Shown here piece after piece: positions 24,196 through 39,816 of a DNA stretch of 64,000 nt. Each line of letters opens with the position of its first letter. The stretch's first letter is position 1. Under the pieces are notes generated by a model. It had not been told where the DNA came from. It searched no databases and worked only from the letters and a program-made list of their open reading frames with translations. The DNA is from Escherichia coli (GTDB lineage: Bacteria > Pseudomonadota > Gammaproteobacteria > Enterobacterales > Enterobacteriaceae). A program made the translations under genes and the position numbers. The stretch lies in assembly GCF_003334785.1 (NCBI RefSeq), contig NZ_QOWV01000011.1. The stretch is one strand, 5' to 3'.

Positions 24196-24516
24196 TTACT
24201 TATCAACGACCTGCCAGCCATCATCTGTTTTGACCAGCTTGACAGCCGCTGTGCGTTTTTCGTTATCGACAACAGCTGTTACATTGCATTTATAGCTTTT
24301 ATCCGATAGTTTTTCGCAGTCGTGTTTTTTGACTGATTTTAACTTCCGCAGCATGTCAGGCGTGATATCGTTTCTCGCTATGGATTTAACGATGGCATTC
24401 GTCTGCTCCACGACCTTATTCATCGCAGTGTAAATATCCTGCTCAGACGGTTCACTGGTGCAGCCGGTCAGCAAAAAAATGGACGCAATGAGTGTGGTAA
24501 ATGCATATGTTTTCAT
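24196..24516 (-). CDS. Putative lipoprotein
   Basis: Signal peptide with lipobox LLTGC. Confidence 0.55.
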   Translation of the reverse strand: MKTYAFTTLIASIFLLTGCTSEPSEQDIYTAMNKVVEQTNAIVKSIARNDITPDMLRKLKSVKKHDCEKLSDKSYKCNVTAVVDNEKRTAAVKLVKTDDGWQVVDK

Positions 24517-24542
24517 AAAATAATCCCAGACGGTAGAGTACG

Positions 24543-24941
24543 TTATTGAAAAAGGCCGGTTTTCATCTTGCTGTTGTTTTCAGAGAACGTCCACTTGCTG
24601 ACGGTTTCGCCTTTAAATTCGATTTCCAGCGTTTTGGCCTGCGTCTGTGAACCCCCGGTCAGCAGTCCAATCACGGGAATGAATGTGGTGGCATCAAACT
24701 GATTGTTGTCCATCGAATAAGTCCATTGTTCATTGCCACTATCAAGTGTAGTTTTGGTTTCGGGCTGACCGAATGCGGTAATGATTTCTGATTTCGTTGT
24801 TTTATTTTTGATGATTTTCGACTGCAGACTTTGTGATGTTTCTTTTTTTAGATGCTGGTTGCCTGATGTTGAACAGCCAGAAATAAGTAAAGAAGAAATA
24901 AAAAACACAGAAATCATGAATCTGTTCATAAGTTTTCTCAT
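24543..24941 (-). CDS. Putative lipoprotein
   Basis: Signal peptide with lipobox LISGC. Confidence 0.55.
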   Translation of the reverse strand: MRKLMNRFMISVFFISSLLISGCSTSGNQHLKKETSQSLQSKIIKNKTTKSEIITAFGQPETKTTLDSGNEQWTYSMDNNQFDATTFIPVIGLLTGGSQTQAKTLEIEFKGETVSKWTFSENNSKMKTGLFQ

Positions 24942-24978
24942 ATTAATTTTTTATGTTTGCGGTGGTGTGAAATTAATA

Positions 24979-25254
24979 TCATCTTATAAAAACAACTCTG
25001 TCTGCATATTTCTTTTTAATAATGCAGATAAGAATAATGACGCTGGCAAAAAACGTAATGACTGAGGCAGGAGTGCTGCCGGTCAATGAAAACACTAACC
25101 AGGCGAGAGCTAATGCCACGAATTGAAACAGGAATGCCACACTGAGTGGACTTTCACCATAGGCCACTTTTGCATGGCAACCTTTGCAAACCCGCACACC
25201 GTGTGGGCTTTGTGTAAAGCAGAAAGGGCAGCTAATCGTTTTATTATCCATCAT
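24979..25254 (-). CDS. Small zinc-ribbon membrane protein
   Basis: CPFC...CKGC four-Cys motif followed by two hydrophobic helices. Confidence 0.45.
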   Translation of the reverse strand: MMDNKTISCPFCFTQSPHGVRVCKGCHAKVAYGESPLSVAFLFQFVALALAWLVFSLTGSTPASVITFFASVIILICIIKKKYADRVVFIR

Positions 25255-25439
25255 GACTCCGTAGCCTGATTTAAGGTGATGTATTTTTGAACATTTTCGA
25301 TGAATGAACTGCTTTAGTAAAATTGCTTGTACCGATCGATGGATCTCAGGCGATAGGTTATATCTATTATAACTAGATTATCGATCTATAAAAACGATCG
25401 ATATCTTATTGACTATCACTAAAGTATGGACTAGCTAAC

Positions 25440-26669
25440 TTATGGTGCAGGATGGTTGTTGTTTTTAAATGATTGTTCTTTATTGGTATTTGTTGTCATG
25501 GGATGACAGGGTGTCAGAATATGTAGGTGGAGGATTTGGTGGAAAGGATGTGCAGTGGCATGTAACAGAGACATGCCTCTGCGCCTGAGAAGTGCCACAA
25601 TATGGACGAGCAATACAAGCCATGAATACAGACGACGCTGGCGGGGTATCTGACGAGCTGTATTGTGCAGATTGCTCCTGAGCTGGATGATACCCACTGT
25701 CTCCTGTTGTCTTTCCAGACGAATTTTTTCTTCAAGCTGATGGATTTTCTCCAGAATCGTTTCCCGGTTTGCAGCCTGCTCTTCAGACTCGCATGATGGC
25801 ACTGGCACTGGCACTGGCACTGGCACTGGCACTGGCGCGGTTGTAGGTTCTATTGGCCTCTGGGCTTCTTTCAGTAAACTCAGATGCTCAGGCGTAAAAT
25901 CAATCAGTGCTTGCAGGGAAGACCAGCCATATTTTTTACCCAACTGAGATGCTTTAAAGGCAATACCCTGGTATTGAAATGAAAATCCACTCATTTTACC
26001 CGTAGTGGCGATATTGGGTTTGCAGGTCACTCCTTCCTGTTCCAGTAAGCGAACAAAGGTTAGTAAATCGGGATGGTGTGTTAATGCATTGTCGAGCAGG
26101 GCCTGCAACAGTGACTTAGGGCAGGGAGCTGCTGTGCGTTCTGCCATCATCAGTTCATTACGGGAAGGCTTCCTTTTATCCTGGCGGCTACTGCCGGTTA
26201 CACCCGTAGTTTCGGTGAGGCCGTGTACTCTCTCCAGCTCACTGATAATCCGTGTGCCGATAAGATTTTCATTTTTCCCCAGGTACAGTTTTCCACCGAC
26301 CATGTTAATACGACTTGCAATGATATGAATATGCTGCCCATCCGGATCATCGTGCATGATATAGCAGCGAAGATGGGTGTCAGTGAAGCCCATTCGGGCC
26401 ATATAATCGTCAGCGAATGCTGCCCACTGTCTGTTTGACAGTTTCTCACCCTTTGGCAGGCGAAGTGAATTATGCCAGACAGGTTTGGCGACATCGGGAC
26501 GCAGCAGTCGGGTGCCTTCAAATTCACTTATAAGCTCAGCAGCAGTGCTACCCGTCATGTTGCCACCGATGACATAAGGCGTGATTTTGTGGTGAGAACC
26601 TGACTTCAGGCTATAAATAACCACACCTGTGAATTGTTTACCCCTTTTTATTTTCTGCATGCCTTTCAT
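25440..26669 (-). CDS. Mobilisation relaxase (MobA/MbeA-like)
   Basis: 409 aa; histidine-triad-like relaxase motif HDDPDGQHIHIIASR; ATGA start/stop overlap with upstream mobC-like gene. Confidence 0.7.
   Translation of the reverse strand: MKGMQKIKRGKQFTGVVIYSLKSGSHHKITPYVIGGNMTGSTAAELISEFEGTRLLRPDVAKPVWHNSLRLPKGEKLSNRQWAAFADDYMARMGFTDTHLRCYIMHDDPDGQHIHIIASRINMVGGKLYLGKNENLIGTRIISELERVHGLTETTGVTGSSRQDKRKPSRNELMMAERTAAPCPKSLLQALLDNALTHHPDLLTFVRLLEQEGVTCKPNIATTGKMSGFSFQYQGIAFKASQLGKKYGWSSLQALIDFTPEHLSLLKEAQRPIEPTTAPVPVPVPVPVPVPSCESEEQAANRETILEKIHQLEEKIRLERQQETVGIIQLRSNLHNTARQIPRQRRLYSWLVLLVHIVALLRRRGMSLLHATAHPFHQILHLHILTPCHPMTTNTNKEQSFKNNNHPAP
25798..25836. repeat. Hexanucleotide tandem repeat (ggcact) x6.5 inside relaxase gene
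   Basis: Direct read; encodes (Pro-Val)n linker PVPVPVPVPVPVP on minus strand. Confidence 0.9.
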
Positions 26670-27073
26670 GGGTCTGACTCCAGAAATGTTGAGGGAATAA
26701 GGTGATCCCTGAGAGTTTTGATTTGTCTGCGCAGGGCGAAGAGTTCTGTACGGGTCAGTTCGCTGTCAGGGCTTTTGCTGTCGAGATGACTCAACAGGTA
26801 GTTTAAATCCTGTGAAAGGCTGCCAAGTTTTATCCATGCTTCACGATTGATTTCTGGCAGAACCGGCGGGAGTTTATTCAGGGAAGCCATCCTGAGCCAT
26901 TCTCCTTTTTTATACTGACCTCTTTTACTGTCGAGAATAATTAATTCTTCTTCATTTAATCTGACACTGATGCAGTGATGTCGTATTTCATTCTCAGGAA
27001 ATTTGTCAGTATGGAATTTACCGCGTTTTGATACTCTGGTTATATCATCATCATTACTCATGTCACTGTTCAT
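26666..27073 (-). CDS. MobC/MbeC-like relaxosome accessory protein
   Basis: 135 aa; position immediately upstream of and overlapping relaxase; family assignment from composition and context, weaker than relaxase call. Confidence 0.55.
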   Translation of the reverse strand: MNSDMSNDDDITRVSKRGKFHTDKFPENEIRHHCISVRLNEEELIILDSKRGQYKKGEWLRMASLNKLPPVLPEINREAWIKLGSLSQDLNYLLSHLDSKSPDSELTRTELFALRRQIKTLRDHLIPSTFLESDP

Positions 27074-27274
27074 AGTTATCCTTTTATTTCATGTTTATTA
27101 CTACAGATAACCGATGAAATGAATAAGTCAAGTTGTTACGGGATAAATAATTTAATTATCTGGATTAAAAAAGGTATACCATTTGACAAATAGTATACCC
27201 ACGAGGACATATCAGATTAATGGTCATTAAATGAATCCTTGCAGACTAAGAAAAGGGTTGTTTACTCCAGAGTT

Positions 27275-29537: not shown

Positions 29538-30376
29538 CTGAAAGGCCCCTTCACGGTCAATGTGTGGATCATTAGCATTGGCCCTGCGACTACTGATTTT
29601 AACATCTAGGGAAACGTAGCTGATGTTTGGCTTCGATAAGATTCTGTAGCACCGCCTCAGTGGGGTTGTCAGAACATTCCGCTGCCGCCTTAAGAATATC
29701 GCTTACTAGAGATGAAACTGGTTGATTGTAATCCCGGTCGACCGTTACTCTATGTTTATCCGGATAATTTTGGCGTACACATTAAGTGAAGAAAACTTCA
29801 AAGTGATTTGAAACAGATGTTGTATTCACTGGCTCATTTACATTAACTTGAGTGTTGTTCAGCACATGTTGAAACGCAGCTGTAAGGAAGATGATACAGC
29901 CAAGATGTATCCTTCATTATGGGGATTGGCGCGATGACCACCACGGCTTAGCCCGATTGATTATTTGGAAATTGATTAGAATGCATAATCTGGGCTGAGC
30001 TCACTTAAAGTCTCTAATGTTTGACTTGGAGATTTGGGGGGCAGTGGCTTTCAGTTTTGTTAACTCTAACATCTGGTTTACGTTCCTTTTGGAACAAGAA
30101 GCAGAGGTCTGCTAAGTAATGGTTGTACTGCTTGTGATAGGTATGACTGCATGTTCAGCGAGCAAGAATGGCTTAAAAGTTCTGTTACTGAGCACCCCAT
30201 GAAGTTAGAACGATGTCATAACGTGCACGTAACCGTTGAACTGTTCTCTTACAGATAATCTCTACATAGCTATTATTGCTTAGGCGGTAGCTATGTAGAT
30301 GGTTTTTGTAATATTATATTAAAAGTTCATACAGCGACTATAGCATCATTGCGAAAAATATCAGGAGGTGAGTTTA

Positions 30377-32482
30377 ATGTTACGAAAAAGCAAACTTACA
30401 GAGATATATAAAAGGTTTGGTTTTACTGAAGAAAATACAGGTAACGAAAGTATTGCTGTATATTCTATTAAAACAGGGCACTACCATAACGCGGACATAC
30501 TTCCACTAAATAATGAGGTTAATGTAAATCAAACCTTTGAAGAATATAGGCAGTTAGGTTATGCATGTCAAATTAAAAAATATCAGTCTTATGAAGAAGC
30601 ACATAAGGAATTATTTAATGGCTTCTTTAGCGTCGATTCAACTAAAGAAAGGTTGATTAAAGATTATAATACTTTCACAGATTCAATTGTAAAAATTCAC
30701 TCACCTACTGCAACTTATTCCTACATAAATTCAAAATATTACTTAAATGGTGTTATTGGCGAAGCTAATGTTGTTACGGAAATATTAGAGAGAATACAAC
30801 ATAGGCGTCCAATTCTGTTTTTGATTGAGGCTGCAGCCGGTTTTGGAAAGACTTGCACGGCGTATGAATTATTGAGGGAGATTATAGTTAACAATATAGG
30901 GAAAATACCATTATTTTCAGAACTATCAAGGAATAGGCAAGCAAAAATATTCAGGTATGTACTATTAGATGAAATTGATAGAAGTTTTCCTTTGTTAAGC
31001 TCAGCCTTAGTAAGGAATGAAATAAGAGCAGGAAATGTACCAGTTATACTTGACGGGTTTGATGAACTATTGCATGAAAGTACAAACGGAATTGAAAATA
31101 ATTATGAAAAAACAGAGCCAATGCTGGAAACAATAAGTGAGCTTCTAACTGATAGTGCAAAAGTGGTTTTGACAACTCGAAGAACAGCTATATTTGACGG
31201 AGATGAATTCCATCAGTGGATAGCATCACATCAAGAAGATTTTGATGTGATAAGAATAAGAATTCATGAACCACAAATTGAAGACTGGCTTCCAGGTCAA
31301 CGTTTAGATGAAATTTCATCGACAGGATTTCCTCTTAACAAATTATCAAACCCTGTACTGCTATCATTTCTAAGATGCATCGACGACACCGACTTTAATA
31401 AAGTTATAAGCGACCCAACAACTATAGTGAGGAAGTATTTTGATTCAATGCTTGAGCGAGAAAGAAAAAGACAAGATTTATTAATGTCTATTGAAGATCA
31501 ATATACTATACTAAAAATAATAGCTGACGACATGGTCGAGGGTAACTACACATCTGAGTCTAGAGAGTATATATCGTTAGTCATAACTGAAAAGAATCAA
31601 CAACTCTTGGAGGCTACAAGAAAGCTTTATACTGTAGATGAAAGACCAACTACTGACGAATTAGTTAATAAATTAGCATCGCATGCTCTATTAGATCGGT
31701 CAGGCTCAGAAAACCAAGGTATTGGATTTGTTAATGAATTTGTTCTTGGTAATTTTGTTTCTGAAAATATTATTAATGATAAGTCAAATGAATGGATTGG
31801 TGATAAACGTTTTATAGAACCAGCAGTGCAATCTTATATGCCGAGGATCGATGATGAAAAAGAATTACTTTGGCATAGCTTAGAGTTTGCTTTATATTTT
31901 ATGTCAGGTAATGATAAAATCCTTTATAGTCATTTGCTTATAGGAAAAGTTCCATTAGATTTAAAAAATGATAGTGTTGAGCAATTGTCTATATCAAAAC
32001 TTTCTTTAGGCGATATAAATATAATACATGATACTATCTTTGTTGATTGTTCGTTTTTTAGCAGCATATTTACCTGTGGTAATTATAAAAACGTTACATT
32101 CGTGAACTGTTCTTTTATAGATTGTAGTTTTAACGAATTAAGTGGTAGGGAAGATATTTATTTTTTGGGATGTGAATGTGACAATGATGCTATTAATAAA
32201 AAATCTGTCGAGATAAACAGTGAAAATGATCACGATATTACAGATTGTGATATTTACATCTTAGAGAAGTTCTGTCCCAGAGGGAGTGTTAGCTATCATA
32301 AGCATCGGCCTATAAAAGGCTTATGTTCTAACAACAATCAATTTCAGTTAAGTGAAATACTCCATTCTTTAGATAAATTGAGGAAAGACGGTCTTTTACT
32401 TACGCCAGACAAGCGTTCGTTCCTTGAACTTAACATGGCAAGAATATCAGAGATTAAAGCAATTCTTGGGAGGAATTTCTGA
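30377..32482 (+). CDS. NACHT/STAND-type P-loop NTPase with C-terminal pentapeptide repeats
   Basis: Start at ATG 30377 with aggagg RBS; Walker A AAAGFGKT; NACHT-style Walker B VILDGFDEL; C-terminal run FVDCSF-FSSIF-TCGNY-KNVTF-VNCSF-IDCSF. Confidence 0.7.
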   Translation: MLRKSKLTEIYKRFGFTEENTGNESIAVYSIKTGHYHNADILPLNNEVNVNQTFEEYRQLGYACQIKKYQSYEEAHKELFNGFFSVDSTKERLIKDYNTFTDSIVKIHSPTATYSYINSKYYLNGVIGEANVVTEILERIQHRRPILFLIEAAAGFGKTCTAYELLREIIVNNIGKIPLFSELSRNRQAKIFRYVLLDEIDRSFPLLSSALVRNEIRAGNVPVILDGFDELLHESTNGIENNYEKTEPMLETISELLTDSAKVVLTTRRTAIFDGDEFHQWIASHQEDFDVIRIRIHEPQIEDWLPGQRLDEISSTGFPLNKLSNPVLLSFLRCIDDTDFNKVISDPTTIVRKYFDSMLERERKRQDLLMSIEDQYTILKIIADDMVEGNYTSESREYISLVITEKNQQLLEATRKLYTVDERPTTDELVNKLASHALLDRSGSENQGIGFVNEFVLGNFVSENIINDKSNEWIGDKRFIEPAVQSYMPRIDDEKELLWHSLEFALYFMSGNDKILYSHLLIGKVPLDLKNDSVEQLSISKLSLGDINIIHDTIFVDCSFFSSIFTCGNYKNVTFVNCSFIDCSFNELSGREDIYFLGCECDNDAINKKSVEINSENDHDITDCDIYILEKFCPRGSVSYHKHRPIKGLCSNNNQFQLSEILHSLDKLRKDGLLLTPDKRSFLELNMARISEIKAILGRNF

Positions 32483-33387
32483 TGTATAACGGGAATGAAT
32501 TGCGAATTATTCAAAGTTTGCAAAAAGATATAGAAGATGAACTTAATCGTATTGGATTACTTTATCGTTTTTTTTCGAGGACAAAATCAGAAAGCTCAAT
32601 AATTAAGAAATATGAAAAAGAGCCTAATAAATACTCAGAGGATGGTAAAAAAATTCAAGACTTATTTGGGGTTAGGATAATATTATATTTTCCTGATGAT
32701 TTATTTATTGCTCAAAAAACACTGGAGAAATTATTCGAAATTGAATCTAAAACCGTAGACGAAACCACGGCTAATCTCTTTGCGGCAACTCGATGCAATT
32801 ACGTCTTTAAGTTACCAGAAGTATTATCAAATGATAGTGTCTTATTAAAGAAATATTCTTATATTGATACTACTTTTGAAGTCCAATTTAGAACTATTTT
32901 ATCTGAAGGATGGCATGAAGTTGAGCATGATCTACGCTATAAGTGCAAAGAGGATTGGGTTGAGCATAATGACCTTAGTCGCGCGCTGAATGGAATTTAC
33001 GCCTCTTTGGAAACATCTGATTGGGGAATAATGAAGTTATTTGAGGATTTAGCATATAGAAATTATAAGTCAAGCGCATGGTCCGCTATGCTAAGAAATA
33101 AATTAAGATTGAGAATGGACGATAAGCTTGATGAAAAGATAATTTCAATAATTAATGAGAAAGAGCTTGGTAAAAAGTTTTATAGAATTGACAGAGATCG
33201 TTTGTTATCGTTAATGTTAGATTATAATATTGATATACCAATTAATCTTAATAATATAATTTACCTTTGTAATTATTTTTTCATAAAATCTACGGAGCTT
33301 CAGGATATAGCCCCTGCTTTAATAATGAAAAAGCTTACAGATGCTGATGAAAAATTCAATAAAAATACTATTTTAGCATCTAAATAA
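32482..33387 (+). CDS. RelA/SpoT-domain nucleotidyltransferase (alarmone-synthetase / toxSAS-like)
   Basis: Start overlaps upstream stop (TGATG); motifs FSRTKSESSIIKKYEK, DLFGVRIILYFPDD and EVQFRTILSEGWHEVEHD correspond to the RelA/SpoT synthetase fold (G/RxKS..S, D..G.RII, ExQIRT). Confidence 0.65.
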   Translation: MYNGNELRIIQSLQKDIEDELNRIGLLYRFFSRTKSESSIIKKYEKEPNKYSEDGKKIQDLFGVRIILYFPDDLFIAQKTLEKLFEIESKTVDETTANLFAATRCNYVFKLPEVLSNDSVLLKKYSYIDTTFEVQFRTILSEGWHEVEHDLRYKCKEDWVEHNDLSRALNGIYASLETSDWGIMKLFEDLAYRNYKSSAWSAMLRNKLRLRMDDKLDEKIISIINEKELGKKFYRIDRDRLLSLMLDYNIDIPINLNNIIYLCNYFFIKSTELQDIAPALIMKKLTDADEKFNKNTILASK

Positions 33388-39453: not shown

Positions 39454-39816
39454 TGGTGGAGCTGGCGGGAGTTGAACCCGCGTCCGAAATTCCTACATCC
39501 TCGGTACTACATGCTTAGTCAGTCTTTACATTCGCTTGCCAGCTGCGGACGGACACGCCACTAACAAACTAGCCTGATTAAGTTTTAACGCTTCAACCCC
39601 AGGCAGGGCTTCCACGCGATCTCTTTTGGGTTTGACCTCTCTTGATCCCCGTCCTAAGAGCGGAGGCTAGGGAGAGAGGGCTCTAAGCAGGTTATTAAGC
39701 TGCTAAAGCGTAGTTTTCGTCGTTTGCGACTATTTTTTGCGGCTTTTTACGAGGCCAACCGCCCCTCGGCATGCACCTTGGGTTTCGCAAATCCCGTCGA
39801 ATCCAGAATCAGCCCC
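39454..39816 (-). ncRNA. ssrA: tmRNA (SsrA)
   Basis: 363 nt; minus-strand sense begins ggggctgattctggattcgacggg and ends ...gggttcaactcccgccagctccacca; tag-encoding region present. Confidence 0.95.

Follow-up and report, generated by a model that had tools for sequence, protein, structure and literature searches.

A hexanucleotide repeat of variable copy number encodes a Pro-Val tract in the predicted interdomain linker of an Escherichia coli island relaxase

The stretch of Escherichia coli DNA that we analysed (64,000 nucleotides; hereafter the window) carries on its minus strand, at 25440–26669, a 409-aa gene for a MobA/VirD2-type (MOBP/Q-like) HUH relaxase, identified from its open reading frame, Pfam, RefSeq annotation and a fold match. 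Pfam PF03432 ('MobA/VirD2-like nuclease domain') matches aa 32–151 with an E-value of 3.5e-22, the NCBIfam models TraI_MobP, Bacteroides MobB and MbpB reach 1e-11 to 1e-15, all far under their curated cut-offs, and RefSeq names the gene 'relaxase/mobilization nuclease domain-containing protein'. Sequence search returned no PDB match at E ≤ 1. The top Foldseek match of the predicted structure in the PDB is the minimal relaxase of MobA from R1162 (2ns6; probability 0.99, E = 5e-3, target TM 0.43), with scores that are modest because the query was the whole two-module model. An earlier reading of the DNA made from its sequence only had described the gene as MobA-like, and the Pfam match, the NCBIfam similarities and the fold match all bear this out. 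The translation contains a His cluster (H106-D107-D108...H113-I-H115) and an N-terminal Tyr19; across an alignment of 84 sequences reaching down to about 33% identity, Y19, H106 and H113 scarcely vary and H115 does not vary at all, and Tyr19 and the His cluster are the presumed catalytic residues. Judged by a dN/dS (omega) of 0.13–0.23, the N-terminal relaxase domain is evidently under purifying selection.

Overlapping the relaxase start by 4 nt, a 135-aa ORF on the minus strand (26666–27073) is a candidate relaxosome accessory gene. Searches of NCBIfam with its product gave no match and the similarity to the Pfam NikA-like family is weak (E = 0.14); from its size, its position and a gene order that is the same in all related loci, it is a probable MobC/NikA-like accessory protein. 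Just upstream of this accessory gene–relaxase operon, a near-perfect intergenic 13-nt inverted repeat with a 1-nt loop (27173–27199; GGTATACCATTTG / CAAATAGTATACC) is a candidate oriT hairpin or operator. Directly downstream of the relaxase lie three small minus-strand ORFs of 91, 132 and 106 aa (24196–25254), whose order is kept in every related locus, other genera included. The N-termini of two resemble lipoprotein signal sequences with a terminal Cys (…LISGC and …LLTGC), and none of the three has a convincing family match. At 23031–23164, intergenic and upstream of the ORF at 23563–24054, three direct repeats spaced at 49 bp share the core AATACGCTTCGCGCA (Tandem Repeats Finder period 49, 2.6 copies) and look iteron- or operator-like.

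These genes belong to an island that has ssrA (tmRNA, tag ANDENYALAA; 39454–39816) at one boundary; in K-12 the CP4-57 prophage occupies this site. On the far side, beyond ypjA, lies a tRNA gene with anticodon CAT (13229–13304), annotated by RefSeq as tRNA-Ile. In a near-identical locus (L010, strain MFDS1001074), the integrase gene adjoins ssrA and is followed by genes for a serine recombinase and two ParB proteins, insertion sequences, a DUF4928 gene, a 146-aa ORF, an ankyrin-repeat gene, the accessory gene, the relaxase, the three small ORFs, ypjA and the tRNA with anticodon CAT; conjugation machinery was not seen in the annotated stretch of this locus. The layout is that of a putative integrative mobilizable element integrated at ssrA. 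A plasmid origin was rejected, as a megablast search of 72,556 plasmids gave only one irrelevant 118-bp match and all E. coli matches are chromosomal. The island carrying the relaxase gene occurs in about 2.5% of complete E. coli genomes (134–136 of 5,426). The window and L010 also show differences. At 30368–33387 on the plus strand, two adjacent ORFs with overlapping ends encode proteins of 704 and 301 aa that matching RefSeq loci annotate as NACHT domain-containing and RelA/SpoT domain-containing, respectively; this pair is a candidate for anti-phage defence by the island, and L010 has an IS3 in its place. Between 18550 and 18554 the window is without about 2 kb of the ypjA/ehaD autotransporter gene that is present in L010 at 11192–13248, probably through a deletion between internal repeats of the gene.

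Within the relaxase gene, Tandem Repeats Finder detects, and the raw sequence confirms, a perfect hexanucleotide array at 25797–25836 (period 6, 6.7 copies, 100% matches), which reads (TGGCAC)x6.7 on the plus strand and lies within coding sequence on the minus strand. On the coding strand the array is GCG (CCA GTG)x6 CCA TCA and translates as Ala278-(Pro-Val)6-Pro291-Ser292, with (Pro-Val)6-Pro occupying aa 279–291 (codons at 25797–25835). Given the base composition of the window, chance alone would be expected to yield about 3e-16 perfect lag-6 runs as long as this one. The sequence-only reading had reported a perfect in-frame repeat, (ggcact)x6.5 at 25798–25836; this is the same TGGCAC array with its phase shifted by one base, and the translation given there, PVPVPVPVPVPVP, agrees with ours.

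The Pro-Val tract falls between two predicted modules. We modelled the relaxase with AlphaFold2 from an input alignment of 84 sequences and searched 1.84 billion representative proteins for homologues. In the model, aa 1–269 (25863–26669, minus strand) form a confident domain with pLDDT mostly above 90, aa 273–295 have pLDDT below 50 and are without secondary structure, and the C-terminus comprises a long helix (296–340), an Arg-flanked hydrophobic helix (343–363), a further helix (374–385) and a disordered tail to aa 409. An overall pTM of 0.45 would be expected if the modules have no fixed mutual orientation. Relatives at 62% identity or less, whose total lengths range from 288 to 1,062 aa, align only from aa 1 to about aa 252–265. 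The helical region at aa 296–385 (25515–25784, minus strand; pLDDT about 55–80) is lineage-specific: comparison with the C-termini of distant homologues found no significant similarity, and the region is strongly conserved among enterobacterial orthologues. A membrane anchor was considered for its hydrophobic helix and is not claimed, as the 19-aa Kyte-Doolittle maximum is a borderline 1.55 and hydrophobic residues number only about 15. Between the modules, aa 270–295 (25785–25862, minus strand; …AQRPIEPTTA-(PV)6P-SCES…) are predicted to be an unstructured linker from both the model and sequence divergence, with the repeat as its core, and 25841–25900, just upstream of the repeat, is the most divergent part of the gene, at 63–86% identity. 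Unrelated Pro-X tracts occupy the position of the Pro-Val tract in several distant homologues, examples being PAPAPAPAPA at about aa 275 (P0121) and PTPAPTPTPT at about aa 274 (P0154). The low pLDDT of the tract agrees with disorder or an extended form, as a prediction only. The placement of the tract between relaxase and C-terminal domains, proposed earlier from the DNA, thus fits the end of homology near aa 260 and the predicted coil at 273–295 flanked by a domain and helices, and in the model aa 279–291 are the core of a non-globular interdomain connector.

The number of repeat units varies widely between related loci. A single 1,801-base query retrieved record spans of 1,801, 1,807, 1,813, 1,837 and 1,843 bases, and direct counting of pure GTGCCA units in related loci gave 1, 2, 4, 6, 7, 8, 11, 12, 13, 14 and 18. 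Among fetched loci whose genes are more than 99% identical and whose flanks are identical, we counted 4, 6, 7, 8, 12 and 13 pure units. We then surveyed 59 complete E. coli genome records in which the gene is at least 97.5% identical, taking counts from alignment spans, within which miscounts in individual assemblies are possible, and checking 8 of the 59 directly; pure-unit counts are 0.67 below the copy number in the style of Tandem Repeats Finder. Nine alleles of 4–13 pure units were present (Simpson D 0.85), eight of which were counted directly: 7 units was the most frequent (17 genomes), followed by 8 (11), 6 (7), 9 and 11 (6 each), 12 and 13 (4 each), 10 (3) and 4 (1). Divergent E. coli lineages also vary, with 2, 8, 11, 14 and 18 units counted directly. 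The commonest E. coli allele, a 403-aa class indexed in 1,128 collection blocks (P0072), has only 2 pure units, and a single-unit allele exists (L015). Orthologues in Raoultella, Salmonella, Enterobacter, Klebsiella, Citrobacter and Cronobacter are 399–413 aa long in steps of 2 aa, with tracts from (PV)1 upward. The range over divergent lineages of E. coli and other Enterobacteriaceae is 1–18 units. Far from being invariant across homologues, copy number therefore differs among related sequences as the sequence-only reading had suspected, and its expectation that length would change without a frameshift also holds: all changes are multiples of 6 and every allele is annotated as an intact CDS. 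The hedged wording of that reading, a potentially variable hinge, has the appropriate strength.

Closely related isolates place these changes on a short time-scale. Two clonal pig isolates (L007 and L008, Res13), without a single SNP in 21 kb, differ by one unit and by a 15-bp indel at an IS2 end, and two chicken isolates (L019 and L020), separated by 2 SNPs in 31 kb, again differ by one unit. The 15-bp insertion (GTAGCTATGTAGATG; L007 16195 / L008 16190) adjoins the IS2 end upstream of the NACHT gene, and stems either from a rearrangement linked to the IS or from a difference in assembly. Repeat arrays can mis-assemble, and if this indel is an assembly difference then the copy-number differences might likewise be miscounts from sequencing or assembly, with a true length that is constant. 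We give this explanation almost no credence, however: each allele recurs in several complete genomes obtained independently, with different laboratories, hosts and countries represented; no array exceeds 108 bp, which is far below read length; and lengths differ only by exact multiples of 6, between identical flanks. Three MRE162 sub-strains agree mutually, as do several Res13 isolates, and protein databases independently show lengths of 399–413 aa in 2-aa steps. The array is an in-frame VNTR in which whole units are gained and lost on the time-scale of clonal divergence.

Several features of the array point to slippage at the level of DNA rather than to selection on residues. CCA GTG is the codon pair of the tract in all lineages, despite divergence of the adjoining linker; one locus (L013) carries a five-fold amplification of a mutated unit, CCA ATG (Pro-Met), and another (L014) a duplication of a 24-nt higher-order unit ending in CCA GAG (PVPVPVPE). 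Short tracts appear stable: gene length is invariant in the 2-unit lineage (19 of 19 genomes) and in a 4-unit sub-lineage (10 of 10), as against nine alleles in the 4–13-unit lineage, with shared ancestry within each class. Slippage is known to depend on tract length, and a variability that rises with pure-unit number fits such a dependence; this is suggestive, as the classes are confounded by shared ancestry. The shared codon pair, the amplified variant units, the one-unit differences between clonal isolates and the stability of short tracts together favour a DNA-level process, and slipped-strand mispairing during replication would be the mechanism that adds and removes GTGCCA units.

Could the repeat instead act as DNA, with its coding capacity incidental? 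The sigma-54 promoter consensus is TGGCAC-N5-TTGCW, and the repeat unit is identical to its -24 half, so the units might form -24-like boxes or protein-binding iterons. A sigma-54 promoter was nevertheless rejected, as the required TTGC -12 element is absent at the right spacing both within the array and at its 3' edge (TGGCAC-TGGCG-CGGTT). A DNA-level cis element of any kind is highly improbable in our judgement, because unit number ranges from 1 to 18, units are mutated to CCAATG or CCAGAG in some lineages with the Pro-X frame kept, and no plus-strand ORF of at least 30 aa overlaps the array, the nearest such ORF ending at 25796.

We favour a reading in which slippage generates a VNTR within a tolerated, near-neutral interdomain linker of the relaxase of an ssrA island, and place the probability of this whole package at close to 0.8. 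A disordered Pro-Val spacer, with the VNTR as its core, would link the catalytic domain (aa 1–269) to the helical C-terminus (aa 296–385). Tracts of alternating X-Pro form extended, fairly stiff spacers, with a textbook geometry of about 0.6 nm per dipeptide, and by this geometry, which is not drawn from the present protein, the spacers of natural alleles would span about 0.6 to 11 nm. The relaxase would tolerate anything from 1 to 18 units, and the polymorphism would be mutation-driven and close to neutral, with no regulated switch. Linker length is unlikely to be critical because the genes that carry tracts of 1–18 units are all intact, with purifying selection on their N-terminal domain, and because the commonest allele has just 2 units.

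The same observations can be read as adaptive. Linker length under diversifying selection could set the reach and geometry of the DNA-bound relaxase domain relative to a C-terminal partner-binding or translocation-signal region, and an island relaxase might in this way adapt quickly to different helper conjugation systems through their coupling proteins; we consider both parts of this proposal unlikely. The pure repeat has been kept in three divergent lineages with flanks that are 63–86% identical, which could reflect selection for a tunable tract, and overall it has been kept or re-expanded in at least three divergent lineages and at least six genera while the adjacent linker diverged to 63–86%. 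The allele spectrum in the lineage of the window is broad, with no single dominant length. Relaxase C-termini in general carry T4SS recognition signals, and the C-terminal region here is strongly conserved and Arg-rich around its hydrophobic helix. Slippage turnover alone, however, equally predicts that the repeat would persist, the stable 2-unit allele and the single-unit alleles suggest that no particular length is required, and the protein is cytoplasmic and so would not face diversifying pressure of an immune type. The near-neutral linker therefore remains our preferred account of the length polymorphism.

The repeat also coincides with a sharp change in the conservation of the gene, which fits a position between separately evolving modules. 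In comparisons with divergent loci, synonymous divergence (dS) is 0.23–0.70 over codons 1–262 and 0.05–0.12 over codons 293–409, and a sliding profile over 24000–26669 of the window places the boundary near 25840. The block downstream of the repeat is mostly 90–100% identical across lineages and genera and comprises the relaxase C-terminus and the three small ORFs (90, 128–132 and 106 aa in these loci), extending about 1.5 kb beyond the gene; between lineages, identity drops to 63–75% over the relaxase core and immediately upstream of the repeat. An overlapping gene behind the low downstream dS was rejected, as ORFs in other frames are only 32–73 aa, with none of at least 80 aa. Because there is no long alternative-frame ORF and the conservation spans the next 1.5 kb and three more genes, we regard a block-wise, recombination-type history, with its junction at or near the linker, as the likelier explanation. 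A more ambitious idea, which we think quite unlikely, would make the VNTR an evolvability device of mobilizable islands, in which rapid, reversible changes in a spacer of about 0.6–11 nm between the oriT-bound relaxase domain and the conserved helical C-terminus tune recognition by helper T4SS and coupling proteins, and the repeat doubles as a recombination joint where relaxase cores are exchanged against the conserved block of C-terminus and three small ORFs; a joint at the repeat would explain why the mosaic boundary falls exactly at the tract.

These results bear on how the locus might be used and annotated. If linker length does matter, the alleles constitute a natural series of 1–18 Pro-Val units for studying the reach of the relaxase domain from the C-terminal module during mobilization. 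Even if length is neutral, the repeat discriminates strongly among carriers (Simpson D about 0.85) and, as a marker that resolves isolates 0–2 SNPs apart over 20–30 kb, could be used to track the ssrA island within outbreaks or farms. The variation also calls for caution in annotation and clustering, as many apparently different relaxase accessions of 399–427 aa are one gene with a slipping linker. Nothing here should surprise a specialist unless linker length affects mobilization.

The locus can be set beside several known systems. X-Pro spacers occur in the (Glu-Pro)n(Lys-Pro)n region of TonB and in the Ala-Pro linkers of the E2 chains of 2-oxo-acid dehydrogenases. Like these, the Pro-Val tract consists of X-Pro dipeptides between two modules, is predicted to be non-globular and tolerates changes in length; it differs in arising from a perfect DNA repeat that is hypervariable within a species, in a conformation that is here a prediction, and in residing in a cytoplasmic DNA-processing enzyme rather than an envelope-spanning or swinging-arm protein. 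MobA of RSF1010/R1162 shares with the island relaxase an N-terminal HUH relaxase fold and a separate C-terminal module after a non-conserved connector, but the sequence similarity is below phmmer detection, the C-terminus of the island protein is a predicted helical region of about 90 aa in place of a primase, and its connector is a polymorphic repeat. Phase-variable contingency loci likewise contain slippage-prone intragenic repeats, with a mutation rate that presumably depends on tract length. The 6-nt unit of the relaxase VNTR, by contrast, is a multiple of three, so that slippage never switches the gene off, and a phase-variation switch can be set aside because the reading frame survives in every allele and all are annotated as intact CDSs. 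Among typing loci, the generic 10-locus E. coli MLVA scheme GECM-10 uses the 6-bp loci CVN014, CVN015, CVN016 and CVN017 (PMC8143711), which resemble the relaxase VNTR in having a 6-bp unit, in being polymorphic among near-identical strains and in showing single-unit steps between close relatives. With up to 3 mismatches allowed, the 64-kb window contains no match to any of the 20 GECM-10 primers (PMC8143711, Table 1), and the relaxase VNTR is thus not one of those ten loci; in contrast to them, it lies on a mobile island found in about 2.5% of genomes and would be unusable as a generic marker. A full-text literature search found no published description of a relaxase Pro-Val VNTR. In kind, however, the locus is familiar: it is an in-frame 6-bp VNTR encoding an X-Pro interdomain spacer, an ordinary slippage-prone linker.
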